From an uncultured Verrucomicrobiota bacterium (GTDB lineage Bacteria > Verrucomicrobiota > Verrucomicrobiia > Palsa-1439): a DNA stretch of 64,000 bases. The first letter of the stretch is position 1. Each line of letters opens with the position of its first letter. The stretch is taken from positions 180,633 to 244,632 of the forward strand of contig CAZHLM010000001.1 in assembly GCA_964533295.1 (NCBI GenBank), read 5' to 3'. Shown in pieces: positions 10,966 to 27,592 of the stretch. The notes under the pieces are model-generated. The model searched no databases, had not been told where the DNA came from, and saw only the letters and a program-made list of their open reading frames with translations. The translations under genes were made by a program, and so were the position numbers.

Positions 10966-12566
10966 GCGGCGTCGGCGCGAGCGACACGCCGTCCAGACCG
11001 GCGGCCTCGTGGTTGAATGAGCGGGGCGCAGCTCGCGAATCATCAAGAGCTTGATGGCCACACGGTTACCTGAAGCCGCGAAAGCCGTCCAGGCAACTCG
11101 AAAGCGTCGCGCCAGTTGATCGTGACTCTCGCCGGGTGGAAGAAGCGCTTGACAACCGGCTTGCTTGAGCAGACTCCTGCAGTATCCAGCACCCGTCTGG
11201 GATTAACTTGGACAGCGTGTGCTTAGCACGTCCTGGTGGTCTGGAGCAGAACGGCTTGCTGACCGGGCGCGGTAGTGGCATAAAGGGCGGCGAGGTCGCC
11301 AACGCCATTAAGGCGCATGAAGCCCCCCAGCGAACCCGTCAGTTGGGCGATCCCACAGGCAGCCATGAAGATGGCCCGGATCGGCGTGTGGCGGCGCAGG
11401 ACACCTGCCAGTGTCAGCAGACTGCCGCCTATCATCAGCCAGGCCACTGCGTCGAGGGTCATCGCCACGCGATACAGAGTGGGGTTGCGGACGGCCGGCA
11501 AGAGTTCTACACAGTCTGCTCCCAGAGCATTGTCCGATGCCTGCTGGCCGATGCTGCCGAAAATCACCATTGGGAGCGCAAGTGCCGTCAGCGCGGTTCC
11601 AGTGACCGGCGCGACAGGAAGCGCAGCCAGAGGGTGGAGTCAGCGCGGGTTTGTTCGAGGGACATTGGCTGCATAATGTTCTCCATCAGCGATTGTCAAA
11701 CTCTTTGGGCAGCATGAAATGGATGAATACCCAAATGGCTATCTGTTGGAGCGGTCAGATGACCATCCTGAGCAGCCGCCTCTATCATTTCAACATTACG
11801 CCATTGATTCTTGGTGATCTGGCTTCTGGCAGTGCTGACATTTTTATCACGGGCCGCGGCCGTTAAGGGATCAGGCACCCCCTGGGGCCTGCGTCTCTAT
11901 CCGCCGATATACCTCCTAGTGCTCAACGCCCTAACGATCCAACTATCCAAGGTGGTTTGCTATTCTTTTCGCCTTCGTCGTGCGACTAGGGATCGTGGGC
12001 GGGCGCCGGCGGCTCAGTGGTTGCGAATGTCGCGTCTGGGGCGCCCCGCTCGGCCGCCCGATGGGACGACCATTGGCTTCTTGCGTGACCGCGAGGATAA
12101 ACTCGACGTTTACCTGATGTAATCCAGATGGGACGGTGTCAAGCGGCTTATGGATGACCCTTCCCAAGATGTTTCTGCCTAGCAAATTGGTCGGGCCAAT
12201 ACAAGAACCGTCACTTCGGCCCTTTCTCCACCTCAGTAAACACAATAAGATTGTGTTTCCTTGCGTTATCATAAGAACGAGGCGAGTCCTGCGAACACAA
12301 GCTAACCAGTTGGCCCATGACTTTCACTTGACGGGTGCTTTTTGCGAGCCTACACTCTCCGCTACGGGAACGCGCCTAAACATCCCGCCACCGTCGTCTC
12401 GGGAAGCAAGCTACTGAGTTTTGAGAAAATAACTTGACACCCCGGCCGCAAAAAAAGGCCCAGACTAGGGCGTTTTGCGCATACCAGGTGTCAAATCATC
12501 GATTGAAATTCAGTAGCACCGCCGATCAAATCTCTCCTATCGGTCCTGAACACTGGAGGTGTTCCC

Positions 12567-13679
12567 ATGCATCACGAACCTGCGCCGAGGCCCGCGTTCG
12601 ACCCCCCTTACCGGTCGGAAGAGTTGGCGTCGCTACCGCCACTTCTTGCCACCGAACCACCGCCTGCAACGTCCGAAATTACAGTGGCCAGCGTCATGGT
12701 CTCCGGTGCTCACGGTGAGCCACACATCTCACACCGCATCACGCCGATTCACTCCGAGACAGGCGTGTACCGGGTTGACACCGTTCTCACCGGCGGCAAC
12801 TTCCACTCGCACCCGCGCGCCCTGAAGATACCCGGCCGTCGCTTCGACCCGACCCGAGTTTCTGTACCCGGCTGGTCGTCCGAGCCTTACCGACCCCGCT
12901 TCCGCGATCTGCGTTACGTACCGGCTGCCGCGGCCGCTCCCATGCCCCGGCAGGTCCGGACCCGGAAAGGGGTGGAACTGGAACCCTATATCATCTATCC
13001 ACCTGATCGCCGCTACGTGTTCGATGACACGTCGTATCCTTGGTGTACCGTTGGGGCGGTGTACTCAGTGAGTCTGGCCAGTGGCGTCTTGGTCGGACCG
13101 CGCCATATGCTGACCGCCAGCCATGCCATCGACTGGCAGCCCGATGGCAGTTTCGGACAGGTACGATTCGTGCCGGCCTCGTTCGACGCACAGGCGCGGT
13201 TTGGCACTGCGTATGCAACAGCCATCTACTACTATCGCCGGCTCGCCGGCGGCCCGCAGAACTCCGACGATGTGGCTGAGGATTATGTGGTGTGTGTGCT
13301 GGATACCCCGATGGGCGATCTGCTGGGCTGGATGGGTTCTCGGGTGTACGACGATGATTGGAACGACCAACCCTATTGGTCACACATTGGATACTCGATT
13401 GACATCGGCAATGGCGGGCTGCGACCGTCCTATCAGGATCAAGCTACTTTCGACGATGCCGACGGTCCGGGCTTCTTGGGGACCGGCGATGGCTTGGACA
13501 TGCGGACTCGGACAGGCGATGTCACCTATGGCGATTCGGGTGGCCCATTTTTCGAGTTCTGGCCCGATGGACCGTATGTCGTGGGTGTCACCAGCGCGGG
13601 CAGTCCAGTTGGTAACTGGTGCGGTGGCGGGGAGCCAATGGTGAACATGATCCGCCAGGCACGCCGCGACGATCCTTGA
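12567..13679 (+). CDS. trypsin-like (S1 family) serine protease with about 150-aa N-terminal pro-region, no signal peptide
   Basis: Catalytic triad context: His in LTASHAI, Asp in DYVVCVL, Ser in GDSGGPFF. No N-terminal hydrophobic signal. Preceded by an unusually low-GC intergenic region. Confidence 0.75.
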   Translation: MHHEPAPRPAFDPPYRSEELASLPPLLATEPPPATSEITVASVMVSGAHGEPHISHRITPIHSETGVYRVDTVLTGGNFHSHPRALKIPGRRFDPTRVSVPGWSSEPYRPRFRDLRYVPAAAAAPMPRQVRTRKGVELEPYIIYPPDRRYVFDDTSYPWCTVGAVYSVSLASGVLVGPRHMLTASHAIDWQPDGSFGQVRFVPASFDAQARFGTAYATAIYYYRRLAGGPQNSDDVAEDYVVCVLDTPMGDLLGWMGSRVYDDDWNDQPYWSHIGYSIDIGNGGLRPSYQDQATFDDADGPGFLGTGDGLDMRTRTGDVTYGDSGGPFFEFWPDGPYVVGVTSAGSPVGNWCGGGEPMVNMIRQARRDDP

Positions 13680-14161: not shown

Positions 14162-15307
14162 TCAGGCCCAGTTGGCGTAGCCGTACTTCACTAGGTCCAC
14201 CATATGCTGGCCGCCGGCAAAAACCGAGTGGTCTTCGGTCACATGGAACCACCCCAGTGAGAACTCTTCCTCGTTCCCACTGGCGATGCCAACGACGCGC
14301 GGGTCCCGTCCAAACCAGCCGAAGAGCGGCCCGCCGGACCAGCCGCCCGGCAGGAACTCGGCCGTCTCGAGTTCCCGCCCATCCCCATCTGAGTCGACGT
14401 CCTCGATCCGCAGGTCGGGCGCAAGCATCGGCCGGTTATTATTGCTGCCCGGGTAACCGATCGACTGCCAGCCCGAGCGCCGGTAGCTGTCGTCATCAAA
14501 GTAATACCAAGTGCCCATCCAGCCCGCCTGGCGCCCGATCGGCTGGTACAGGCTGGCAATCACATAGTCGCGGCCGTGCACGTCGTCCTTTTCGGTCCGG
14601 ATGCCGCGCGCGTGCTGTACAAATGCGCTGCCAAAGGGCCGGGGGTTAGGATCGCCGTTCCGGAAGCCGGGGATGAATTCCATCGACCACTGTGTGGCCC
14701 CCCAGGGCACGGCGTGGCTGGCGGTCAGGATCAGGTTGGGCCCGACCAAAACCGCGCTCCCAATCTGGTCCAGCTGGCCTGGGACCCGCGCGATGACGCG
14801 CCCGACCGTGCACCACGGCCAGTTGCGCTCCGCCAGTTCTGCCGCCACCAGCCCGCCGTTGATCAGCTCCCGCTCGTGAGGCCCGGCCTGAATACCGCCC
14901 ACTACCACCGGGACCATTAGCACGCGCTGCGGGCGCGGGATGATCCGGGGGAGATAGCGCACGCCGAGCGAGCCAGGCCGGTAACTCTCCGGCAGGGGGA
15001 GGCGGCGGGCCTTCCGGATCAGGTCTCCCGGCTCGAGCCGGTCGGCCGAGGTCACAGGCTGGCCCAAGAAGAAAGAGTCGGTGCCCGGGCGAAGGCAGAC
15101 CTGCCAGCGGTTTTCGCCCAGCGCCTCCACGGCCGCCTGCGGCGTGCGGCCGCCCAGCACTGTCAGGCAGACCTCAGGTTTAGGCGTCGGCGGCCGGTCC
15201 TCGGTCGCTTCCTCCGGCTCGATCCAGGCGAGGTCATCCAGGGTCAGGAGCGGCGGTGCCTCGCCTTCGGACTTCGGCGAACGGCGGGCGGCCGCCAGCC
15301 AGACCAT
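14162..15307 (-). CDS. trypsin-like serine protease, paralog of 12567..13679 (conservative start at internal ATG 15307; frame is open to 15427)
   Basis: Same architecture as its paralog: WPWCTVGRV, LTASHAV, DYVIASL, and GGWSGGPLF in place of GDSGGP. The pro-region is also homologous (PPLLT...EPE...). No signal peptide. Confidence 0.7.
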   Translation of the reverse strand: MVWLAAARRSPKSEGEAPPLLTLDDLAWIEPEEATEDRPPTPKPEVCLTVLGGRTPQAAVEALGENRWQVCLRPGTDSFFLGQPVTSADRLEPGDLIRKARRLPLPESYRPGSLGVRYLPRIIPRPQRVLMVPVVVGGIQAGPHERELINGGLVAAELAERNWPWCTVGRVIARVPGQLDQIGSAVLVGPNLILTASHAVPWGATQWSMEFIPGFRNGDPNPRPFGSAFVQHARGIRTEKDDVHGRDYVIASLYQPIGRQAGWMGTWYYFDDDSYRRSGWQSIGYPGSNNNRPMLAPDLRIEDVDSDGDGRELETAEFLPGGWSGGPLFGWFGRDPRVVGIASGNEEEFSLGWFHVTEDHSVFAGGQHMVDLVKYGYANWA

Positions 15308-15356
15308 CTGCTTGGCCCGCTCGGGGCTATAGACGCTCGTGGTCAACTCCCAGCGC

Positions 15357-15706
15357 TCATCCAGGGGGAAAAAGCCCCCGCCCGCATGCCGCACAGTGGT
15401 AATACGCCCGTTCGACTTCGATCTCACCCGCCTCGGTCACGATCCGCCGCCGGCGTTTGCCCTTGGACTTCATCTTCCGGCCACACGCCGGGCAACTCGG
15501 CCAGACCGGCAACTCGGCGGCGCTCTCTTGGGCCAACGCGCTGGCAATCGCCTGCTCAATCGCCTGCCCCGCGCCCCGGGCCACCCGTTCAATATCAGCC
15601 AGGCTGGCTTCCCCGGGGGCCTTTCGCTCGGCCAGCGCCTGGGCCAGGGCGGCTTCTACCGCCGCCCGCAACCGGGCTTCCAATTCGGCTTTGCCCTCTC
15701 CCATCG
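15357..15706 (-). mobile_element. 5' remnant of an IS transposase gene (ISKra4-family-like zinc-ribbon N-terminus), no catalytic domain
   Basis: RBS AAGGAGG plus ATG 15706. The peptide CPACGRKMKSKGKRRRRIVTEAGEIEVERAYYHCAACGRGLF is followed, after a 1-nt slip in a T5C5 run at about 15363-15380, by PLDERWELTTSVYSPERAKQ. This Cys4 ribbon plus PLD...LGL...SP pattern is as remembered for ISKra4-type transposase N-termini. It then runs directly into the protease paralog. Confidence 0.45.
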
Positions 15707-15735: not shown

Positions 15736-17850
15736 CTACTCCCGACCGGCCAAAATCTGCGAATGCACCCGCAGCAGCCGCGACGAATTCGCCAGGATGC
15801 CCAAATCCGGCAGAGATTGCGCGGCGGCGGCAAAGATGGGCGGCAGGAAGCCAAAGGCGGCCAGCGTCAGCCCCGCCACATTGTAAATGGCGGTGAAGAC
15901 CAGGTTCATTTTGACCACCTGCATCGTCCGCCGCGCGATGCGAAAGACCTCTGGAACAAGCGCCCAGTCGTCGCGCATCAGCGCGATGTGGGCGGCCTCG
16001 ATGGCGATGTCGGTTCCCGCCGCGCCCATTGCGATGCCCACATCTGCCTGCGCCAATGCCGGTGCATCGTTCACTCCGTCGCCCACCATCACCACAGTGC
16101 GGCCTTGCGCCTGATACGCTTTCACCACCGCAATCTTGTCTTCGGGGAGAAGATTGGCGCGATACCTTACGCTGAGCTTGTCAGCGAGCGCGGCAGCTGT
16201 GCGCTCGTTGTCACCGGTGAGCAGCTCAACTTGCGGCACACCTAAAGCGCGCACAGCGTTCAGTGCCGCAGGCACCTCGGGGCGCAGAGTATCGGCGGCA
16301 GCTAACACCCCCGCGAGTTCATCATTGCGCGCCACAAACAAGAGTGTCTTGCCCTGCGCTTCGAAAGCGTGGGCTATAGATAGCGACTCAGCCATGGGGA
16401 TGAGACGGCGGTTGCCCACCGTCACGATGCTTCCATCCACCTTCGCGCGCAGACCCATGCCGGGGATGGCTTCAAAATCTTGGGGTTCGGCCAACGGTAG
16501 ATTCCGGGCACGAGCCGCCACGCGCACCGCTTCGGCCAGCGGATGCTCCGAGTAGCGTTCGGCAGACCCGGCCAGCGCGAGCACCTCCGAGGTGGATAGT
16601 CCGTTCAATGGAATCACGTCGGTGATTTGCGGCTGGCCGAGGGTGAGCGTGCCGGTCTTGTCAATCAGGAGTACGTCGGCGTGCGCCAACGTCTCGATGT
16701 ATTTGCCGCCCTTGATGAGCAGGCCGCGCTTCGCGCCGGCCCCGATCGAGGCCAGCATCGCAATCGGCGTGGCCAGTGCGATGGAGCAGGAACACGCCAC
16801 GACCAGCACGGCGGCGGTGGACAACGGGTTGCGGCTGATGAGGAAAGTGATTGCGGCCAGGCCCGCGACCATCGGCAGATAATAGGCCGTGAACTTGTCG
16901 GCGAAGCGCTGCACATCGGCCCGGTGCGCTTCGGCCTCTTCTACCATCTTGATAACGCGACCAAAAGTGGTATCGGCCCCAACATGGGTGGCCCGGACTC
17001 GCAAACTGCCCAGCCTGGCAATGGTCGCGGCAAACACTCTCGCACCGGGGCCGGCCTCGACTGGCATGGACTCGCCCGTGATGGTTGCCTGATCCACGGT
17101 GGCCTGTCCCGACGTGACTTCGCCATCCACCGGGATTTTCTCACCAGGCCGGACGATGACGGTATCGCCGACGCTCACTTCGGTAATCGGAACTTCGATT
17201 TCTACACCATCCCGCTCGACGCGGGCCGTTTGCGGGGCCATCGCCGTCAGGTCTTTCACCGCGCGGCGGGCGCGTTCGGTGGTGAAGCTTTCGGCGTAAT
17301 CGCCGACGCGCATAAAGAAGACGACAACAGCGGCCGTCGCCCACTGCCCGATGGCCAGCGCGGCCAGCACGCCGAGTGTCATCAGCGTGTGTGAGGTGAC
17401 CTGCCGCTTGAGGGCGGCGCGCAGGACGTTGCGGAAGATGGGCCATCCGCCGAGGATGACCAACAGCACCCCGATGGGGAAAGGCACCAGTTCGGTGATG
17501 CGCTCGAACAGGCCCAGCCACTCGCCGACGACGATGACGAACAACACTGCACCGAACACGACGGCTAAGAGTGTGACCACCCGGCGAGTGAAATCGTTCA
17601 ACCCAGGCGGGGCAGCCGGCGTTGCGACTGACTCCGGCACCGAATAGTTTCCGGCGCTGGCGACGGCCTTGCGGAGGGCGGGCAAACTCACCCGCGCCGG
17701 GTCGAGCCGAATAACGGCTTTCTCGGAAGACAAAAAGACGTTGACGGACTCAACGCCCGGCACAGCGGCAATAGCGTGCTGGACATGCTGAGTGCATTCG
17801 GCGCAGTCCATACCAGCGATTGGAATCGTGAGGGTTTGAAGTTTATCCAT
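15736..17850 (-). CDS. P1B-type heavy-metal-translocating ATPase with CSC transmembrane metal motif and N-terminal HMA (GMDCAEC) domain
   Basis: HMA domain, DKTGTLT phosphorylation site, [10 protein letters not shown] hinge. The TM6 motif is [13 protein letters not shown] (CSC instead of CPC). Confidence 0.85.
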
Positions 17851-18196
17851 GCGTGGGCTCCTGTGGGGAATTGTAGCGCGCGCATTCGGACACGCCCTTT
17901 GCCACGTCTACCAATAATTCATCGATGAGACGCAGGAATTGCCCGATGCGCCTGTCACTCAACTCATAGTAACCGGAGCGTCCCTGCGGTATCTCGATCA
18001 CGAGGCCGCAGTCGCGCAAACAGGCGATATGAGCAGAGACATCCGATTGTGCAAGGCCGGTTGCCTCTGCGATTTCGCTCACCGTCAATGGTCCGGCTCG
18101 GAGGGGCTCCAGGATTAAGAGCCGGGGCGGGTCGGCGAAGCCCCGTAACAGTTTGGTGCGCAGGTCTATGACTTCTCTGCTGGCGATAAGTCGCAT
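17843..18196 (-). CDS. ArsR/SmtB-family metalloregulator
   Basis: w[45 protein letters not shown]-terminal ECARYN. Translationally coupled (8-nt overlap) to the downstream ATPase. Confidence 0.75.
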
Positions 18197-18230: not shown

Positions 18231-20357
18231 TCAGGCCCGCAGCATCCGCAAGCCACTACCGATGACGACGAACTCGCTGATCTCGTGGCCCAGTACGGCG
18301 ATAGGCAGGGAGAAGACGCCGGCGACCGCGCCAACGACTAACGCGCCGATCACCAGGGCCGACAGCCCCAGGTTCTGGTTCACGACCGACTGGTTGCGCT
18401 TCGCCAACCGGAGCGCGTAAGCCAGCTTCTCCAGATCGTCTGCCATCAGGGCCACGTCGGCGGTTTCCAGCGCCACGTCCGTGCCCGCCGCGCCCATCGC
18501 CACGCCCACGGTCGCTTCGGCCAGCGCCGGAGCATCGTTCACCCCGTCGCCCACCATCGCGACGTGGCCATGTCGCTGAGACAGCTCGCGCACTTTCACC
18601 AGTTTGTCTTCCGGCTTCAAGTCGGCATATACCTCGTCAATGCCCAACTCTCGGGCGATGGCCTGTGCGGTGCGTTCGTTGTCGCCGGTGAGCATCACAA
18701 CCTTCTGAACGCCCGCCGCGTGCAGCGCGTCAATCGCTTTGCGCGCATTCGGGCGGATGTTGTCGCGGATGGCGATCAGGCCCCACGGCGCCTGCTCGTC
18801 GCCGACGACCACCACGGTCTTGCCTTCGCCCTGAAGCTGTTGAATGTCGTCCCACGCGCCATGCAAAGAGACGCCCAGGCGGGCGTGAAACAGGTCCGGG
18901 CTGCCGACGTATACGGTATGCCCGTCCAGGCGCGCCGACGCCCCCGCCCCGGTCAGCGACCGGAAGCTGTCCAGTTCCGCTGGAGCAACTGTCTGCTGCT
19001 CAGCATGGCGGACGATAGCCCGCGCCAGGGGATGACCGCTGCGCCGCTCGATGCCAGCCGCTACCGCCAGCACTTCTTGGGCAGAAGTCGTAGGTTGATC
19101 CGGGTCGGTGCGGCAGAGCACCACATCGGTTACTTCCGGTTCGCCTCTCGTCAGCGTGCCGGTCTTATCCAGCGCCACCACCTTTACTTTCGCCAGTTCT
19201 TCGACGTAGACGCCGCCCTTGATGAGCACGCCCTGGCGCGCGCCCGTGCCGAGTGAAGCCACCAGGGTGATGGGGATCGAGATGACCAGGGCACACGGGG
19301 CGGCGGCCACGATGAAGACCGTGGCGCGGGTGATCCAGGTCGTCCAATCGGCGCTGAAGAACAGCGGCGGAATCGCGGCGATGAGAATTCCGATAAGCAG
19401 CACCGCCGGGCTGTAGCGCGCGCCGAAGCGTTCGATGAAGCGCTGGCTCCTGCCTTTCTTCTCCTGGGCCTCTTCGACCATGTGGATGATGCGCGCGATG
19501 GTGTTCTCGGCGAAGGTCTTGGTCGCCCGGACTTCCAGCGCACCCTCGCCGTTGATGCTGCCCGCGAACACTGTGTCGCCGGGCTGCTTCTCCACCGGCA
19601 CGCTCTCGCCCGTGACCGGGGCCTGGTTCATGCTGGAAGCGCCGACGAGCACCACGCCGTCCGTGGCGACGGACTGTCCCGGCTTGACGATGAACACGTC
19701 GCCCACTTCCAGTTCTTCGACCGGGATCTCACGCTCGACCCCATCGCGCCGGACCAGCGCGACCTTCGGCGCCAGGTTCATCAGCGCCTTGATCGCCGCA
19801 CGGGTTTTCTCTTCCGTGTAACCTTCAGCCGCTTCGCTGATGGAATACAGGAAGACCAGCATGGCGCCTTCGGCGGCCTGGCCCATGATCATCGCCACGA
19901 CAGCAGCCACGCTCATAAGCAGCTCAATGCCGATCTCGCGCTCGAAGATCAACTCTTCGATGGCTTCCCGGCCAAAGAAATATCCGCCGATGAGGATGGC
20001 GGCAACATAAATGACGGTTGAGACAATCTCTGGTGCGCCAGCCAGCCCGATGAGCCAGCCGGCGAGCAACAGCACACCCGACGCAGCCGACGTGAGCACC
20101 TTGGGGTTGCGCCAGGGTTTAGGCTGCTCGGCCATCTCCATGCCCTTTTGCGGTGGAAAGCCGAGCGCTTCCAGCTTTTCTTTCAAGGCTTCGGGCCGGG
20201 TCAGCGCCGGATCGTAGGTCAATGTGACTTTGGCGGATTTCGGATAGACCTTTAGCCCAGTCAGCCCCGCGAAGCTTTGCAGGCCACGCTCAATGTTGGC
20301 TGCATCATGTTCGCAATCGAGGTTGGCAACACGAAGTTCGAGTTGTTTGGTGTTCAT
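18231..20357 (-). CDS. P1B-type heavy-metal-translocating ATPase with APC transmembrane motif and degenerate HMA domain
   Basis: [17 protein letters not shown]. The TM6 motif is AAAPCALVISIP. The N-terminal ferredoxin-like domain has a single Cys (NLDCEHD) instead of CxxC. Confidence 0.85.
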   Translation of the reverse strand: MNTKQLELRVANLDCEHDAANIERGLQSFAGLTGLKVYPKSAKVTLTYDPALTRPEALKEKLEALGFPPQKGMEMAEQPKPWRNPKVLTSAASGVLLLAGWLIGLAGAPEIVSTVIYVAAILIGGYFFGREAIEELIFEREIGIELLMSVAAVVAMIMGQAAEGAMLVFLYSISEAAEGYTEEKTRAAIKALMNLAPKVALVRRDGVEREIPVEELEVGDVFIVKPGQSVATDGVVLVGASSMNQAPVTGESVPVEKQPGDTVFAGSINGEGALEVRATKTFAENTIARIIHMVEEAQEKKGRSQRFIERFGARYSPAVLLIGILIAAIPPLFFSADWTTWITRATVFIVAAAPCALVISIPITLVASLGTGARQGVLIKGGVYVEELAKVKVVALDKTGTLTRGEPEVTDVVLCRTDPDQPTTSAQEVLAVAAGIERRSGHPLARAIVRHAEQQTVAPAELDSFRSLTGAGASARLDGHTVYVGSPDLFHARLGVSLHGAWDDIQQLQGEGKTVVVVGDEQAPWGLIAIRDNIRPNARKAIDALHAAGVQKVVMLTGDNERTAQAIARELGIDEVYADLKPEDKLVKVRELSQRHGHVAMVGDGVNDAPALAEATVGVAMGAAGTDVALETADVALMADDLEKLAYALRLAKRNQSVVNQNLGLSALVIGALVVGAVAGVFSLPIAVLGHEISEFVVIGSGLRMLRA

Positions 20358-20691: not shown

Positions 20692-21483
20692 TCAACGTAT
20701 CACCCGAGGCAAAAATCGTCCGGTGCGTTTCATATAGTCGCGATACGCGTCGCCGAATTTCCCGATCATCACGCGCTCTTCACGCTCGACGCGCAGGAGC
20801 ACGATCACACACAGGCCGACGAGCGGAACACCGCCGACGAGCCAGCTCCGCGTCAGCAGTAGAATCGCCGCCATGGACAGAAACAATGCCGTATACATCG
20901 GGTGGCGCATGTAGCGATAAGGCCCGCTGGTCACCAGCCTATGCTCCCGGCGCACATGGAGCGTCGGCGAAAAATTGCTCCCCAGGGCCTGCTGCGTCCA
21001 CGCGAGGAGGGGAAGACTGACTATGCCCAGCACAACGCCCAGCCACTGCAATCATTGCGGCAGCGGCAGTTCCGCCCACGCCAGGACCTGCGGGCGAACG
21101 ATGTAGAGTAAGACATCGAGGAAAAATATTGCGCCAATGAGGGCGCGCAAGGCGATATTCAGCTTACCTTCTTTGTATTCAACCTGCCCCTGCACTAGCC
21201 GGGCGCGCCACTGGAAATACACACGGATCGCGGCAAACAGCGTGAAGAAGACGACAAAGACGCTGTGGAAAAACGTTTGGCTCATTCTAAGACTCTGTGC
21301 CAACGAACCGGCTATGCTTTCACAAAGTTCGCCGAGAAAAAGTACCACGGCCCGGGCATGGCTTGTAGTCGAAAGCCCGTCGCCTCTGCCAATCGTTTCA
21401 CTGTCGCGCGGGATTGGTAGTGTGGGTCGGGAAAGATTTCCGTGATCGAAAGCTGGCCGCCAGATTTGAGCGCCGCATAACAC
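20692..21483 (-). pseudogene. isoprenylcysteine carboxyl methyltransferase (ICMT/CzcN-like) family membrane protein interrupted by an in-frame TGA at 21052-21054
   Basis: One continuous frame: ...AWAELPLPQ-TGA-LQWLGVVLG...RYMRHPMYTALFL (ICMT RHPxY region). The N- and C-halves are listed as ORFs 21052..21483 and 20692..21051 in the same frame. Probable start ATG 21285. Confidence 0.55.
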
Positions 21484-21945: not shown

Positions 21946-22401
21946 TCACCCCCCCTGTAACCCTCGGAGTGGCCTCAACATCCGATAGAACAGCAAGACT
22001 GCTCCCATCACCAGGGCCACGTCGGCCAGATTAAAGGGGACACCGGCACGCAGGTAATCGACCGGATGGCCGACTCGCCAGCCATCGGCCAGGTTGCCCA
22101 GCAGTCCCCCGAGAAAAACTGCCACTGCGGTACGATAGAGGGCGTCGGGGACAATGTGGCGCTTGTACCACCACAAGAAGGGCACACCGATAATCGTCAA
22201 CACAACAAAAAAGGAGGCGGTATCAAGCATCGCACTGCCAGGGCTGACGGGCCGTGTGATCCCCATCCGTCCGAGAATGAACAGGCGGGACGCGCCTTCC
22301 GGCAGGGCAAATTCCACGACCAGGTCAAAAGCCTGATCTAGCAGCAATAGAGCAAACGAGATCACGGTGAACCGGTGCGGTCGCCAATTCATTGCAGGCA
22401 T
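21946..22401 (-). CDS. lspA: lipoprotein signal peptidase II
   Basis: Conserved LspA boxes including FNLADVALV and VDY. Four TM helices. 151 aa. Confidence 0.8.
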   Translation of the reverse strand: MPAMNWRPHRFTVISFALLLLDQAFDLVVEFALPEGASRLFILGRMGITRPVSPGSAMLDTASFFVVLTIIGVPFLWWYKRHIVPDALYRTAVAVFLGGLLGNLADGWRVGHPVDYLRAGVPFNLADVALVMGAVLLFYRMLRPLRGLQGG

Positions 22402-22913
22402 TATTCGCTGTCTGGCGAAGCTTTCGGAATGCGTCCAGCTATGAGCAGAAGGATCAGACCCAGCACGATGAAACTGTCCGCCAGGTTGAAAGTCGGCCAG
22501 CGGGCCGTGCCGAGGCCCAGGTCGAGGAAATCGGTGACGCGGCCATCCGGCAGGCGGTCGGCGAAGTTGGCAATCGCCCCGCCGAGAATCAGCCCGATGG
22601 GCCAGGCCGCCGCACGAGTCTGTTCGCCGCTGCGGAGGGTGTTCACCAGCCAGACCGCCAGGCCAATGATGATGAGGCCGGTGATGACGAGCGGCCAGAT
22701 GCCGCCGTTGGCAAACAGCCCGAATGCCACGCCGGTGTTATAGCTAAGCGTGAGACGGAACATGTCACCCAATATCGGCACAGGCCGATGAAGGCGAAGC
22801 GTTTGCTCCGCCCAGAGTTTGGACACGCTGTCCGCGACCAACGCCAGCAGCAGTCCCAGTAACACTCCTGAAACGGCTTTGAGTTTTCTATCCATTACCA
22901 TGCCTGCCAACAT
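22401..22913 (-). CDS. lspA: lipoprotein signal peptidase II, second tandem copy
   Basis: NTGVAFG, FNLADSFIV. Overlaps the downstream lspA by 1 nt. Confidence 0.8.
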   Translation of the reverse strand: MLAGMVMDRKLKAVSGVLLGLLLALVADSVSKLWAEQTLRLHRPVPILGDMFRLTLSYNTGVAFGLFANGGIWPLVITGLIIIGLAVWLVNTLRSGEQTRAAAWPIGLILGGAIANFADRLPDGRVTDFLDLGLGTARWPTFNLADSFIVLGLILLLIAGRIPKASPDSE

Positions 22914-22976
22914 CGAGTTATCACATTATCAAATGATGATATAACGCACCAAAATAAAAAGGCCTACGCACGATCC

Positions 22977-23732
22977 TCAACGCACGCCTGCCATCCGCAA
23001 CTTCATGTCGATCCGGGCCGCCGCTTCAGCAAAGAAGATTTCGGCTTGAGGGTAGGCCAGCCAGACCAGGCCAAGGCCGAACAGGAAGCCGGTCAGCAAC
23101 CGCATCCACCAATTGAACGAGCCGATGACGTCGGTAGCATAAAACCAAAGCGGAAAGGCATTCGCCGTCAGCGCCGCCAGCCAGACGTTCGTTTCGCGGA
23201 ACCCAACTCCAAGTCCCATCAGGTCACTAATAAAGTGGGTGCCGCCGTCTATGGCAATGGGGAAGGTGAGCAGGGCAAAAGCCCACAGCGGCAGCGGGCG
23301 CAGCCGTTTGCTCAAAGGCCGCCAGACGAGTATCAGGAGCCAAATCGCGCCATACATCGCAGTCGTCCGGTCACACCACGCCACCTTGTAACCTAACTGC
23401 TGATTGCCGATGAACTGGCGCAGGAGGAGGGGATTATTGGTTGGCTGCCAGGCTGCCTGAATCTCGGCCAGCGAGTACATGGATTTCATGCCGAATAAGT
23501 AGTAGGCTCGCTCAGGCAGTTGGTGACACTCGAAGGAATAAATGAAGTAGATCGCGCGCGCCAGGCCGGTTGCGCCCACCTTCATGAATACCGGCGCCAG
23601 CCACGGGAGGGTGATAAATATCCCGAAGAACGTGATAAAGGTTGCCACCCAATTGCGGCTGAGCCCTAACACCAGCCGGTTGGCGACAATGGCGTTGCGG
23701 CGGGACGGTGACATCTCAAGCGGAGTGCTCAT
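22977..23732 (-). CDS. DUF2085-like membrane protein (CHQLPER motif)
   Basis: Internal ATG 23732 (MSTPLEM...). Polytopic, with a conserved YSFECHQLPERAYYLFG box characteristic of DUF2085. Confidence 0.5.
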   Translation of the reverse strand: MSTPLEMSPSRRNAIVANRLVLGLSRNWVATFITFFGIFITLPWLAPVFMKVGATGLARAIYFIYSFECHQLPERAYYLFGMKSMYSLAEIQAAWQPTNNPLLLRQFIGNQQLGYKVAWCDRTTAMYGAIWLLILVWRPLSKRLRPLPLWAFALLTFPIAIDGGTHFISDLMGLGVGFRETNVWLAALTANAFPLWFYATDVIGSFNWWMRLLTGFLFGLGLVWLAYPQAEIFFAEAAARIDMKLRMAGVR

Positions 23733-23754
23733 GCAGTTCGTAACCGTGCGCGCG

Positions 23755-24177
23755 TCAGGCGCGTGCCCGTCCGCGAAGTGCCCGGCGCGGGATCCGCCGA
23801 CCCGTATGAACTCTGGATGCCTGGGTCGGCTGAGATTCCGCAGCCCGGATGTTGTAGCGGGTGCATTCGTAGACACCGCGCGCCACATCCGCCAGGAGCG
23901 ACTCGGTCAGAGCCAATAGTTCACCCACGCGGTCATCGCTCAGATGGTAAGTGACGTAGCGGCCCTCTTGTTCAGCTATCACCAGCCCACAGTCGCGCAG
24001 ACAGCCCAGGTGATTAGAGACATTGGATTGGGAGAGGCCGGTGGCCTCGACGATCTCGCTCACGGTCAGCGGCCCGCTGCGCAGGGCATCCAGGATGCCC
24101 AGGCGCGAGGGATCTCCGAACCCCCGAAAGAGTTTGGCCTTGACTTCCAGACCCGTCTTATCTGCCGTCAACAACAT
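23755..24177 (-). CDS. ArsR/SmtB-family metalloregulator (paralog of 17843..18196)
   Basis: w[45 protein letters not shown]-terminal YECTRYN. Confidence 0.75.
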   Translation of the reverse strand: MLLTADKTGLEVKAKLFRGFGDPSRLGILDALRSGPLTVSEIVEATGLSQSNVSNHLGCLRDCGLVIAEQEGRYVTYHLSDDRVGELLALTESLLADVARGVYECTRYNIRAAESQPTQASRVHTGRRIPRRALRGRARA

Positions 24178-24190
24178 CTGGCGCTCCTTA

Positions 24191-24220
24191 TATCATTGCA
24201 TCAGAGATTGATGATATATT
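24191..24220. promoter_or_regulatory. AT-rich nested palindrome TATATCATTGCATCAGAGATTGATGATATA, candidate ArsR operator/promoter
   Basis: Perfect 8-bp arms TATATCAT/ATGATATA plus inner CATCA/TGATG. Located 14-43 nt upstream of the arsR start at 24177. AT-rich in a GC-rich genome. Confidence 0.35.
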
Positions 24221-24325: not shown

Positions 24326-25498
24326 TCACGGCCCGTCGTGCGGCTCGGTCGCGCCGGGCATGTGCTCCGGGGGATGCTCTGGGGAGTGGACAGACATCTG
24401 CGTGGCTGAAGGCAAAAGCTTATGCTCGGGATCGTGGTCCGGGGTGTGCTCTGGCATTTGCGTTGCCCAGGGTGTGTGCTCGGGGGTGTGGGCTGGCGGC
24501 ATGTACTCCGGTGTATGGGTCGAGATGGGTGTTGCCCAGGGTGTATGCTCCGGCGTATGGCCCGGCATTTGCGTGTGCTCGGCTGTCGGTTGCGCCCTGT
24601 GCTGCGGCGTATGGCTCATCTCGGGTGTCGGCCACGGTGTGTCGTCAGTCGGCGCGTTCCCATGATTGGCCGGGCTGGACGCGCCGCGCGGCGTGGAAGA
24701 GCGCTCCGGCACTGGGACAATCGGCGCGCCCGTATGGGTCATCACCTTCAACCGCAGGGCCAGCAGCCCGCCATTGCCCTGCACGCGGACATGCGCTTGG
24801 ACAATCAGCCCCACAGTCGGTGTGCCTTCGACCACCGTCTGGTCGTTCACCTGCAGGGCCAGTCCGCTCACGATCCACCGCCCTGGCTCCAGCGCTTCCA
24901 GGCGTCCCTCCAACTCAAGGGCCACTTCACGGCCGAGGCCCACAAGCGTGCGAATCTCTTCCTGCCGTTCCGCCGCGTACTGGCGCTCGATAGCGCTGCG
25001 AGCCTGTGGATCAAGTGTCAGACCCAGGCGCACCTCCTCCCAGGTACGCTTGACGCCATACAGGGCGTCGCCCGGCAGGCTATTGGCTGAGGCGGTGATG
25101 GTCAGAACGCTTGTGACGACGATGACTACCATCAAGTTAAGCGCCACGCGCAATACGAGTTTCATTCCTCTGGTCTCCTTTCCGATCAACAGATCGCGCA
25201 GTGCGGTGACAATCCGCACTGAATAACGGGAAAGGAGCTCGGATGATACGGGACGAACCACCCCTGCTTCAGGGGGCTGGTAAACGCGCGCAGCCGCCAG
25301 CAGGCGTTCCCGCCCGGCGATGAGCGCCTCCGGGCTGGAGCGAGGGGCGGGCAAGCGCCGCACCCAGGTAGCCGTGGAAAGGAGCGGGCGCAGTCGTCCC
25401 GCCTCGGCGGGGTGATGGGCCAGGCAGGCCTCGCCGCTTTCCCCGGCGCGCAGCCGGCCCAGGCACTCGTCCAGAACCAGATCGAAGTCAGGGCTCAT
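24326..25498 (-). CDS. membrane-spanning anti-sigma factor with extracytoplasmic domain and C-terminal His/Pro-rich HTPEHTPW repeat tail
   Basis: Overlaps the upstream ECF sigma gene by 11 nt. N-terminal cytoplasmic Cys/His region, one TM (LVLRVALNLMVVIVVTSVLTI), then an about 170-aa domain, then repeats such as HTPEHTPWATP, HTPEYMPPAHTPEHTPWATQMPEHTPDHDPEH. Confidence 0.55.
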   Translation of the reverse strand: MSPDFDLVLDECLGRLRAGESGEACLAHHPAEAGRLRPLLSTATWVRRLPAPRSSPEALIAGRERLLAAARVYQPPEAGVVRPVSSELLSRYSVRIVTALRDLLIGKETRGMKLVLRVALNLMVVIVVTSVLTITASANSLPGDALYGVKRTWEEVRLGLTLDPQARSAIERQYAAERQEEIRTLVGLGREVALELEGRLEALEPGRWIVSGLALQVNDQTVVEGTPTVGLIVQAHVRVQGNGGLLALRLKVMTHTGAPIVPVPERSSTPRGASSPANHGNAPTDDTPWPTPEMSHTPQHRAQPTAEHTQMPGHTPEHTPWATPISTHTPEYMPPAHTPEHTPWATQMPEHTPDHDPEHKLLPSATQMSVHSPEHPPEHMPGATEPHDGP

Positions 25499-26042
25499 AG
25501 CAACCTTCCTTCACGACGGCGCGGTGGAGGGCGGCCAGTGCCCGATGTTGAAGGGAGCGAATGGCGCGCTCATTCTTCCCCATAATGGCGGCGACTTCCT
25601 CGACCTCACGGTCCTCGACGAAGCGGAGCATGATCAATTGACGCTGCTCCTCAGTCAGCCAGCGCAGCGCCTTCGCCAGGCACTCCTGCGCCAGGTGATA
25701 CTCGGCCACAATGGCGGGATGTCCGGTCTCGCCGGCGACCAGGGCTTCTTCTAGCGGCACGGGCGCAACCGCGTTCCGGACGCGGTAGTGGTCCGCGATC
25801 AGATTGCGGGCGATGGTATACAGCCAGGCCAGGATCGGACGGCCACAGTCGGTATAGTCCCCCACCTTCTTGACCATGCGTGCGAATACTTCAGCGGTCA
25901 GGTCCTCCGCTGCGACCTGATCGCCCACGCGGTAATAGACATAGGTGAACACCGATGGTTGATGGCGTTCGTAAAGCGCGACCAGTGCGTCCGGATCACC
26001 GTGCCGGGCGCGCTGAATGAGATCGGATTCGCAGGAATCCAA
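25488..26042 (-). CDS. ECF-type RNA polymerase sigma-70 factor
   Basis: Region 2 (VFTYVYYRVGD...AEDLTAEVF) and region 4 HTH (RQLIMLRFVEDREVEEVAAIMGKNERAIRSLQHRA). Confidence 0.85.
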   Translation of the reverse strand: MDSCESDLIQRARHGDPDALVALYERHQPSVFTYVYYRVGDQVAAEDLTAEVFARMVKKVGDYTDCGRPILAWLYTIARNLIADHYRVRNAVAPVPLEEALVAGETGHPAIVAEYHLAQECLAKALRWLTEEQRQLIMLRFVEDREVEEVAAIMGKNERAIRSLQHRALAALHRAVVKEGCYEP

Positions 26043-26107: not shown

Positions 26108-27592
26108 TCAGGCGCTCCGCCCAGCCGGCAGGCGCAGTGAGAAGCGTGCGCCGCGGGCTGGGCCGGTCGGGTGGGCCGTTGGGCTCTCCACCATTGCCTG
26201 GCCCCCGTGCGCCTCGGCAAGCTGCCGGACAATGGCGAGACCCAGGCCGGAGCCGCCCGTCGCCCGGTTTCGCGACTTCTCAGCCCGCCAGAATCGGTTG
26301 AAGACGTGGGGGAGATCCTCCGCCAGAAGGCCTGGTCCTTCGTCACGGACGGCCAGCTCGACGCCGCCGGGCGCAGGCCGGGCCTCGACAGCGACGCAGG
26401 TGCCCGCCCGCGTGTAGCGCAGCGCGTTGTCCACCAGGTTGCCCAGGGCCTGTGCCAGCCGCTCAGGATCGGCCTGGATTTCGGGTAGTCCCGGCGCTAC
26501 CTCGGTCGCCAGCGTGATGCCCTTCTCGCCGGCGCGCAGACGCAATCGATCTGTCACCTGCTGAACCAGCGCGCCCACATCCACCGGGCGCTTTTCCAAG
26601 CGCAGCTGCCTGGCCTCCGCCAGGGACAGCGTGCGCAGGTCGCCGATCAGCCGGTTGAGGAGCAAGGCTTCCTGGTGGAGGGAGGCCAACTCTTCTGAAC
26701 TGGCCGGCAGCACGCCGTCGAGCATCGCCTCCAGGTTGCTCTGCATCACCGACAGCGGGGTGCGCAGTTCGTGGGCAATGTCGGCGATCATGTTGCGGCG
26801 CTCGACGGCGTAGCCTTGCAGGGTCTCGGCCATCTGGTTGAAGGTGAGGGCGACCTGCCCGACCTCGTCTTTGTCGCCGACCCACGCGCGCCGACTCAGA
26901 TCACCCTGGGTAATGCCACGCGCGGCGGCGGACAGACTGCGCAAAGGTCGGATGATCTGAAAGAAGAGAATAGATCCCATTACCAGCGCGACACCGCCCG
27001 CCGCCAGGCCGGCCCACAATACGGAGCGATTGACTGCGCCAAGAAAATCACCGGCCGGTGTGGCGGGCGCGTCGAACGGCGTGACGATCAACGTGCCGAC
27101 GCGCCGTTGCTCGACCGTGATCGGCATCCCCCGCGCAACGTCGTCGGCCGGCAAACGGGTTCCGACCAGCGCCCCGGCCGTGTCCGCCACCACCAACGCC
27201 TCGGCGTCGGTAAGAATCAACCGGTTGCCGGAGGCGGCCCACATGTTATCGCTCATCATGCCGGGCTCATTCCACCATCCCCCCATGCCTTCCATCATGT
27301 CCATGCCGTCCCCCATCATGTCCCCCATCCAGCCCTCTCCGCCTGTGCCGCCAGCCGCCCACGGATTCTGCAAAACCGTTTCAACGCCACTCCACGAACC
27401 GGAACGCGCGTAGTAGCCGGCCAGCGCCGGGGCCAGCCAGGCCGCCCACTGACGTCCGCTCTGGGTCACGTACAACTCAAACTGCCCGGTCGTCGCCCGG
27501 CTGACCAGGAAGACGACCATGCCGGTACCGACGACGATGACCAGCGCAAACGCCCCCATCAGCTTGATCCACAAACTGCGCGTCATCCTCAC
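26108..27592 (-). CDS. two-component sensor histidine kinase with Met/Gly/Trp-rich periplasmic sensor domain
   Basis: Two TM helices, HAMP, H-box ADIAHELRTPL, N/G1/G2 boxes. The periplasmic loop contains GWMGDMMGDGMDMMEGMGGWWNEPGMMSDNMW. Confidence 0.85.
   Translation of the reverse strand: MRMTRSLWIKLMGAFALVIVVGTGMVVFLVSRATTGQFELYVTQSGRQWAAWLAPALAGYYARSGSWSGVETVLQNPWAAGGTGGEGWMGDMMGDGMDMMEGMGGWWNEPGMMSDNMWAASGNRLILTDAEALVVADTAGALVGTRLPADDVARGMPITVEQRRVGTLIVTPFDAPATPAGDFLGAVNRSVLWAGLAAGGVALVMGSILFFQIIRPLRSLSAAARGITQGDLSRRAWVGDKDEVGQVALTFNQMAETLQGYAVERRNMIADIAHELRTPLSVMQSNLEAMLDGVLPASSEELASLHQEALLLNRLIGDLRTLSLAEARQLRLEKRPVDVGALVQQVTDRLRLRAGEKGITLATEVAPGLPEIQADPERLAQALGNLVDNALRYTRAGTCVAVEARPAPGGVELAVRDEGPGLLAEDLPHVFNRFWRAEKSRNRATGGSGLGLAIVRQLAEAHGGQAMVESPTAHPTGPARGARFSLRLPAGRSA

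Follow-up and report, generated by a model that had tools for sequence, protein, structure and literature searches.

A 64,000-nucleotide stretch of DNA (the window) from an uncultured Verrucomicrobiota bacterium (GCA_964533295.1, contig CAZHLM010000001.1, positions 180,633-244,632 of the forward strand) encodes a 704-residue P1B-type ATPase, at 15736-17850 on the minus strand, that carries a Cys-Ser-Cys (CSC) tripeptide in place of Cys-Pro-Cys (CPC) in its transmembrane metal site. Comparison of this protein with its relatives and of its regulators with characterized metal sensors points, with moderate confidence, to a functional efflux pump for a thiophilic divalent metal, most likely Cd(II) and/or Pb(II) and possibly also Zn(II). 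A thiophilic divalent substrate is favored because two unrelated regulator families found with these pumps (CmtR-like ArsR and MerR) carry divalent-type thiolate sites, because the N-terminal HMA domain is of the DCxxC type, and because transmembrane helix 6 (TM6) has lost the Cu(I) ligands and gained a carboxylate. Cd(II) and Pb(II) would be the best guess within this class because of the CmtR-like sensor, a CtpG-like companion pump, and recurrent LspA and ICMT-family neighbors. The analysis drew on the 120 closest database proteins (72-100% identical to the query), on a scan of one genome per GTDB species that returned 351 relatives, of which the top 80 (all at least 69% identical) were used for locus analysis, on 76 of these loci with enough upstream sequence for the counts of upstream context, and on an alignment of 38 homologues for residue invariance.

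The open reading frame (ORF) matches the NCBIfam heavy-metal P-type ATPase model TIGR01525 with 579 bits (cut-off 346), and it scores 468 on the cadmium model TIGR01512 versus 442 on the copper model TIGR01511. The Pfam domains HMA (PF00403, 48.9 bits, residues 8-67), E1-E2_ATPase and Hydrolase are present, and the catalytic motifs are complete, namely DKTGT (residues 397-401), TGES (258-261), SEHP (434-437) and GDGVNDAP (590-597). Hydropathy peaks and the helices of an AlphaFold2 (AF2) model, at residues 84-111, 124-147, 155-166, 170-203, 295-339, 342-389, 632-665 and 671-693, fit the eight-helix P1B topology (MA, MB and M1-M6). With its catalytic core, its eight helices and a Cys tripeptide in M4, the protein is a P1B-type ATPase.

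The initial annotation had reported CSC in place of CPC in the transmembrane metal-site helix, and the alignments bear this out. A 16-residue string containing CSC was aligned by HMMER to AVLVVACPCAFGLATP of A. fulgidus CopA (PDB 3j09), and the 13 residues 350-362 (nucleotides 16765-16803) fall column for column on VVACPCAFGLATP of the same protein; in MAFFT alignments, CSC falls on the CPC of both E. coli CopA and E. coli ZntA. By these alignments, CSC is located in the TM4 metal-site helix (P1B “TM6”). The tripeptide is kept in 120/120 closest homologues and in 79/80 genome loci, and therefore reflects neither a sequencing error nor chance. Nearly all of the 120 homologues also have Tyr-Asn (YN) in TM5, a 12-residue TM6 signature containing QSLPD, and GMDC(A)EC in the HMA domain, and residues C353, S354, C355, S356, Y656, N657, Q678, P681 and D682 are invariant in the 38 aligned homologues. 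Q678 is aligned with Asp714 of ZntA and with the Met of the CopA MxxSS motif, and D682 with the second Ser of that motif; TM6 thus contains an invariant Gln and Asp, and the Cu(I) ligands Met and Ser-Ser are absent. A direct positional equivalence of D682 and ZntA Asp714 was also considered and was rejected, since that position is taken by Q678, with D682 one helical turn beyond it. In the AF2 model, which was built from a shallow alignment, the helix breaks exactly at C353-S354 and the adjoining segment has a predicted local distance difference test (pLDDT) value below 50, which gives only a hint that M4 may be unwound despite the missing proline.

The N-terminal HMA domain contains GMDCAEC at residues 13-19, of which G13, M14, D15, C16, E18 and C19 are invariant in the 38 homologues. 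The residue preceding the first Cys differs among pump types: in the 81 motifs of 54 Cu(I) pumps it is Thr, His or Ser (77) or Glu or Asn (4) and never Asp, whereas Asp occupies this position in 27 of 30 motifs of ZntA-type pumps and in 11 of 13 motifs of the clade with Pro-Asp in TM6 (the PD clade), which is described below. Retention of an HMA domain with GMDCAEC had been noted in the initial annotation; judged by this residue, the domain is of the Zn/Cd/Pb-type DCxxC form rather than generic. The actinobacterial plasmid CSC pumps have no HMA domain, and the chaperone-like (CopZ-like) genes upstream of the proteobacterial CSC copies read GMDCGHC.

P1B subgroups are told apart by residues in TM4, TM5 and TM6, and the query departs from each characterized pattern with which it was compared. 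P1B-1 pumps carry CPC in TM4, N(x)6YN(x)4P in TM5 and M(x)2SS in TM6. CopA (A. fulgidus and E. coli) is the best overall match of the query, with 420 bits to the CopA structure versus 349 bits to ZntA, and shares with it the eight helices, the HMA domain and the TM5 N(x)6YN; the query, in contrast, has CSC, continues after YN with VAGLT and no Pro, has QSLPD in TM6, and lacks the T/S/H-CxxC form of the HMA motif. P1B-2 pumps carry CPC in TM4, N(x)7K in TM5 and DxG(x)7N in TM6. The query shares with ZntA/CadA (ZntA, PDB 4umv) the two TM4 Cys residues, a TM6 carboxylate, thiophilic divalent-metal sensors and the DCxxC HMA motif (GMDCAAC in ZntA and likewise in the Shinella CSC pump), but it has 36-45% core identity to them, falls in a separate clade, and has no TM4 Pro, Asn at the position of the TM5 Lys, Gln at that of Asp714, and its Asp one turn further on. 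Lying outside P1B-2 does not exclude a ZntA-like substrate for the CSC pump. The P1B-4 signature (SPC in TM4, HEGxT in TM6) is absent from the query, and both of its parts are present in neighboring pumps of related loci.

Phylogenetic placement was carried out with the 150 best representatives at 50% clustering together with E. coli CopA and ZntA, the plasmid copies and neighboring pumps; the tree (neighbor-joining, 546 core columns, 300 bootstraps) is distance-based, with a reference set biased towards the query. The clade of pumps with CSC and QSLPD was recovered with 99% bootstrap support, its union with the CAC relatives with 68%, and the whole PD group with about 26-37%, while the Cu(I) clade (MxxSS, P1B-1) excluded the query with 100%. 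A sister relationship of the CSC clade to the Cu(I) pumps, seen in the first neighbor-joining tree, was rejected, as it had 3% support. Core identity of the query is 47-71% to other CSC/QSLPD members, 40-53% to CAC and CPC relatives with Pro-Asp in TM6, and 35-45% to all non-PD groups, so that the placement proposed in the initial annotation revealed no clustering inside a characterized subfamily. The nearest relatives outside the CSC clade are the CAC/CPC PD pumps from metagenome-assembled genomes (MAGs) of Armatimonadota and others (such as P0128, P0136 and P0168, from Armatimonadota, and P0127 and P0135). These share with the query x-P-D in TM6, (Y/F/W)-N in TM5 and a DCxxC HMA motif, but at the position of the TM4 proline they have either Pro itself (CPC) or Ala (CAC); all are uncharacterized, and the support for the grouping is moderate. 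A cluster look-up of the CPC/CAC relatives returned no functional name other than “cation-translocating P-type ATPase” (Armatimonadota MAGs).

A second group of CSC pumps was found in Anaerolineaceae MAGs (P0159, P0183 and P0222, about 770-910 residues), with VVSCSCSLVLSVP (SCSC) in TM4 and NEGSA in TM6. It is placed in a HEGS-type clade and joins the CSC/QSLPD group in 0 of 300 bootstraps, from which it follows that CSC evolved at least twice and that a clade cannot be recognized by this motif alone. In reviews of 2020 and 2026, a CSC motif in TM4 characterizes the P1B-7 subgroup, for which the substrate is listed as unknown (PMC7558416, PMC13460109), as the initial annotation had also stated. 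The query has in common with P1B-7 the replacement of CPC by CSC in TM4, prokaryotic origin and an unassigned substrate. It is likely the QSLPD group, and not the NEGSA group, that corresponds to the published P1B-7 cluster (Smith, Smith and Rosenzweig 2014), because the former is present in cultured bacteria and on plasmids. The ATPase is a further member of these known, uncharacterized CSC/P1B-7-type pumps, and what is added here to the reviews is a family signature (CSCS in TM4, YN in TM5, QSLPD in TM6 and DCxxC in the HMA domain), a CmtR-like sensor with its operator, and a range that covers Chloroflexota and plasmids.

The subgroup had been described as rare in the initial annotation, which does not hold in metagenomes, given the 351 relatives in GTDB species genomes and their frequency in Chloroflexota: almost all of the top 80 come from Chloroflexota (Anaerolineae) MAGs. 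Plasmid-borne CSC copies at 60-68% identity occur in Shinella, Diaphorobacter, Streptomyces and a clinical Mycobacteroides abscessus isolate, and thereby in Actinomycetota and Pseudomonadota, two phyla besides Chloroflexota. The 19.7-kb M. abscessus plasmid pGD22-1 (L011) carries a pair of MerR and CSC pump, the latter 68% identical to the query and without an HMA domain; a BlaI/CopY-M56 pair and a cluster of ferric-reductase-like, ferredoxin and TauE genes adjoin this pair. To our knowledge, there is no mycobacterial chromosomal counterpart of the CSC pump.

The regulators provide a second line of evidence. The arsR gene next to the pump (ArsR#2, 117 residues) overlaps the ATPase start by 8 nt. 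Its product matches HTH_5 with 54 bits, and its HIACLRDCG is aligned on HLSCLRGCG of CmtR (PDB 2jsc), with CLRDC on CLRGC, so that the ArsR helix-turn-helix fold carries the alpha4C ligands, that is, Cys-x3-Cys on the recognition helix and a C-terminal Cys. The NCBIfam CmtR equivalog NF047906 is its second-best match, with 60.9 bits against a cut-off of 150, and ArsR#2 is accordingly best described from its sequence as CmtR-like in its predicted ligands and not as a CmtR orthologue. An ArsR gene lies directly upstream of the CSC pump in 45 of the 76 loci, and another 11 have one at a distance of up to about 4 kb (about 74% in total), the intervening genes usually being lspA, DUF2085 or an APC pump. 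All these ArsRs have H-L-x-C-L-R-D-C-G and a C-terminal Y-(E/Q)-C-T-R, and the C-terminal Cys is found in 45/45 adjacent orthologues. CmtR senses Cd and Pb (PMC10961391), and in M. tuberculosis it controls CtpG, a Cd pump with an APC motif and no CxxC in its metal-binding domain (PMC13460109). The window resembles this system in that an ArsR with CxxxC on the recognition helix and a C-terminal Cys is tied to a P1B pump, and the companion pump of the window likewise has an APC motif and a metal-binding domain without CxxC; the two differ in operator sequence and phylum as well as in the CmtR equivalog score. The SPC/HEGST pumps of the same islands are paired with another ArsR that has an alpha5-type site, DDDHxxxLFxxGLDHVxHG (DxH...HxxH). 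As two ArsR sensor types pair with two pump types, the type of sensor tracks the type of pump. In place of ArsR, MerR-family regulators accompany the plasmid copies of Streptomyces, M. abscessus and Shinella. In MerR metal sensors, Cys at a diagnostic position marks divalent-ion sensors and Ser is found in the Cu(I)-sensing CueR. Typing of the plasmid MerRs with the NCBIfam CueR, CadR, MerR and ZntR models gave scores below the cut-offs throughout, so the Ser/Cys-79 position was used instead; 4/4 plasmid MerRs have Cys where CueR has Ser77 and ZntR/CadR have Cys.

A conserved layout precedes the CmtR-like arsR genes, consisting of TTGACA, a 17-nt spacer, TATAAT, the inverted repeat ATATCATCATATACTGATATGATGATAT, a Shine-Dalgarno sequence and the start codon, and the operator motif is kept upstream of about 45 orthologous arsR genes. 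In the window, an operator-like inverted repeat precedes the distal arsR gene (ArsR#1), and a weaker site upstream of the first lspA may tentatively be regarded as a candidate internal regulated promoter (Table 1). A generic promoter and terminator scan found one promoter where 2.5 were expected.

From these data we infer which metal is exported, which residues bind it and how expression is repressed, as follows. The metal would first bind the N-terminal DCxxC HMA domain or come straight from the cytosol, and would enter a membrane site formed by C353 and C355 of TM4, with oxygen or amide donors from S354 and S356, from Y656 and N657 (TM5), and from Q678 and D682 (TM6); phosphorylation of D397 would then drive the E1-E2 cycle that expels it, the break of TM4 that is normally due to Pro presumably being maintained otherwise. 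The CmtR-type ArsR repressor would bind the AT-rich inverted repeat over the -10 box and would let go of it once metal occupies the three-Cys site, made up of CLRDC on the recognition helix and the C-terminal Cys. Several observations weigh against a Cd(II)/Pb(II) pump of this kind. A substrate has been demonstrated experimentally for none of the family members. D682 is offset by one helical turn from the position of ZntA Asp714, TM5 has the YN of copper pumps rather than the Lys of ZntA, and the best structure and model matches are marginally of the Cu type (CopA ahead of ZntA), though the Cd model outscores the Cu model. Copper genes (CopZ-like, PCuAC, SCO, multicopper oxidase, CopCD and a CopA-like pump) are close to several CSC copies, and the CmtR-like site of three thiolates could also accommodate Hg(II), As(III) or Cu(I). 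The quality of the AF2 model (pLDDT 68, predicted template modeling score 0.36) is too low for a fold search or a geometric argument. No operator or promoter for ArsR#2 was found in the 34-nt gap after the stop codon of the APC pump, and about 21 of the 76 loci have neither an adjacent regulator nor an operator; a search for the ArsR operator in front of these 21 “orphan” CSC ATPase genes gave no score above background, and the upstream neighbors are unrelated housekeeping genes.

Some of these observations would fit an exporter of Cu(I)/Ag(I), in which the CSC pumps are a divergent P1B-1 offshoot that serves copper detoxification or supplies cuproproteins via Sco/PCuAC. Y656-N657 is a copper-pump signature, A. 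fulgidus CopA is the best match among solved structures, the PD clade stood beside the Cu clade in the first neighbor-joining tree, and the JGI automatic annotation reads Cu+-exporting ATPase. The Shinella and Diaphorobacter copies have a CopZ-like gene before them and SCO, PCuAC, TlpA and multicopper oxidase genes around them, and multicopper oxidase, CopA-like pump, cupredoxin and CopCD genes are near the pumps of two further loci (L005 and L006). However, the TM6 Met and Ser-Ser are exchanged for Gln and Pro-Asp in all members, the sister relationship to the Cu clade had the bootstrap support of 3% given above, and DCxxC occurs in 0/54 Cu pumps, the motif GMDCGHC of the adjacent “CopZ-like” proteins being itself of this form. 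The adjacent MerRs have Cys and not Ser at the position of CueR Ser77, the adjacent ArsRs are CmtR-like, and the directly adjacent regulators include no CsoR, CopY or CueR, although BlaI/CopY-type and CsoR-type regulators lie within a few kb of some copies. A copper or silver exporter seems rather unlikely to us but is a serious competing reading.

An exporter of another soft or borderline species, such as Hg(II), As(III)/Sb(III) or a first-row divalent ion (Co, Ni, Fe or Mn), which would represent a new P1B specificity, appears improbable. Hg and As(III) bind well to three-Cys sensor sites, which would suit such a pump, the actinobacterial MerRs score best on the MerR (Hg) model, below its cut-off (90.9 and 87.1 versus 150.85 bits), and the ligand set C-S-C-S, Y-N and Q..D fits no characterized subgroup. 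Against this stand the finding that mer or ars genes lie beside none of the examined copies, the SPC/HEGST pumps with alpha5-type sensors that serve hard first-row ions in these islands, and the fact that pumps for Hg or As are not among the P1B ATPases known to us. It would, finally, be very surprising if the gene were a decaying or non-transporting paralogue, in which the loss of the TM4 proline disabled ion occlusion and which persists as a passenger of the APC pump. This proline is conserved in nearly all P-type ATPases and is lost here, and one orthologue with CAC instead of CSC is broken into two ORFs (L022, 6001-8087; probably a pseudogene or an assembly frameshift). The catalytic motifs are nevertheless all intact, CSC, YN and QSLPD are invariant in hundreds of species at 70-83% overall identity, the gene stands alone with its own regulator at most loci and on plasmids, and the low-confidence AF2 model still breaks the helix at C353-S354.

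A further-reaching proposal can be made tentatively, and we hold it to be possible rather than probable: the CSC/QSLPD pumps may constitute a third, independent lineage of Cd(II)/Pb(II) exporters that arose from a CPC-bearing PD lineage unrelated to ZntA/CadA. Such pumps would use a Cys2-Gln-Asp site on a copper-pump-like scaffold without the TM4 proline and would form, with the CmtR-like sensor and a 28-bp operator, a self-contained module that occurs widely among Chloroflexota and moves on plasmids of Actinomycetota and Pseudomonadota. As the substrate of P1B-7 is listed as unknown in reviews up to 2026, the present locus and hundreds of orthologous loci offer a testable Cd/Pb/Zn hypothesis with a defined ligand set (C353, C355, Q678 and D682), a repressor and an operator. 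The family also indicates that the TM4 proline is replaceable in a conserved, presumably active P-type ATPase, and the graded series CPC, CAC and CSC among the relatives would suit mechanistic study. The pair of sensor and operator is a candidate part for Cd/Pb biosensors, and, also of practical relevance, the pump is carried on plasmids, among them that of a clinical M. abscessus isolate.

In the window, the pump belongs to a co-directional metal island (Table 1) with the gene order ArsR#1, DUF2085 protein, LspA, LspA, methyltransferase, ICMT-like protein, APC pump, ArsR#2 and CSC pump. Co-transcription of the pump with the arsR gene and the APC-motif ATPase had been proposed in the initial annotation. 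The adjacency stands, and the 8-nt overlap and the gap of 34 nt between the end of the APC-motif ATPase gene and arsR are consistent with co-transcription, which such a layout does not in itself prove. The most economical reading of the spacing is that the CSC pump is transcribed as the last gene of the island from one or two ArsR-controlled promoters.

Table 1. Features of the CSC ATPase gene and the surrounding metal island (window coordinates)
Feature	Position	Strand	Basis
CSC-motif P1B-type ATPase, 704 aa, HMA, 8 predicted TM helices, A/P/N domains	15736..17850	-	ORF, hidden Markov model (HMM), hydropathy, AF2 helices
TM6 signature Q678-S-L-P681-D682	15805..15819	-	alignments, motif check
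TM5 Y656-N657, position of Cu-pump YN and ZntA Lys693	15880..15885	-	alignment, motif check
DKTGT phosphorylation motif (D397)	16648..16662	-	motif check
Codons of C353-S354-C355, TM4 motif in place of CPC	16786..16794	-	HMMER and MAFFT alignments, motif check
N-terminal HMA metal-binding domain, residues 8-67, with GMDCAEC	17650..17829	-	Pfam PF00403, 48.9 bits
ArsR#2, 117 aa, CmtR-like (HIACLRDCG and C-terminal SECARY)	17843..18196	-	HMM, alignment to CmtR PDB 2jsc
Second P1B ATPase, 708 aa, TM4 APC, TM6 HEISE, HMA fold without CxxC (LDCEHD)	18231..20357	-	HMM, alignment
Short ICMT/PEMT-family membrane methyltransferase	20692..21051	-	domain match
Two tandem LspA (Peptidase_A8) genes, 21946-22401 and 22401-22913	21946..22913	-	domain match
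Weaker operator-like site ATATCATCATTTGATAATGTGATAACTC upstream of first lspA, 9 mismatches to consensus	22915..22942	-	window scan, tentative
DUF2085 membrane protein between ArsR#1 and lspA	22977..23888	-	domain match
ArsR#1, 140 aa, canonical CmtR-like (HLGCLRDCG and YECTRY), head of co-directional cluster	23755..24177	-	domain/motif check
Operator-like inverted repeat ATATCATCAATCTCTGATGCAATGATAT upstream of ArsR#1, overlapping -10-like TAATAT	24190..24217	-	window scan

Several of these neighbors recur in other genomes. Pumps akin to the APC-motif ATPase adjoin CSC ATPases in six loci (L043, L044, L047, L052, L057 and L062), in two of which (L043 and L044) the two ATPases are separated by a DUF2085 gene. 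At least 10 other loci have LspA next to a CSC pump, and we take these neighbors to resemble PbrC of the lead-resistance pbr operon. Genes of the ICMT/PEMT family, which presumably resemble CzcN, recur beside CSC and SPC pumps (e.g., L013, 6241-6729), and on the Diaphorobacter plasmid pDCB3 such a gene lies directly upstream of the pair of HMA protein and CSC pump.

At the upstream edge of the island, a DUF5667/DUF5666 protein with a long His/Pro-rich tail of HTPEH-like repeats (24326-25498, minus strand) adjoins an ECF-type sigma factor and a HAMP/HisKA kinase (25488-26042 and 26108-27592, both minus strand) and may be a metal-binding anti-sigma partner; the pair of sigma factor and DUF5667 protein also flanks the CSC pump in L007. 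Directly downstream of the pump lies a gene for a 115-residue zinc-ribbon protein with a weak DUF6431 match (15357-15704, minus strand), followed by two proteins of about 400 residues that have only weak trypsin-like matches (14162-15427, minus strand, and 12567-13679, plus strand). The GC content falls to 0.59 across 12-14 kb of the window, and this region next to the pump may be what is left of inserted DNA at the island's edge. A gene with a weak Ferric_reduct match is found about 5 kb downstream of the CSC pump on the same contig (L001). In three other loci, a DsbB gene paired with one for a thioredoxin-fold, DsbA-like protein lies near the CSC pump: about 3 kb upstream in Shinella (L010, 3959-5043), immediately downstream in Diaphorobacter (L013, 9120-10189), and about 3 kb downstream in a Chloroflexota genome (L062, about 11200-12970). 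These pairs suggest a link of the CSC pump to periplasmic thiol repair under metal stress.

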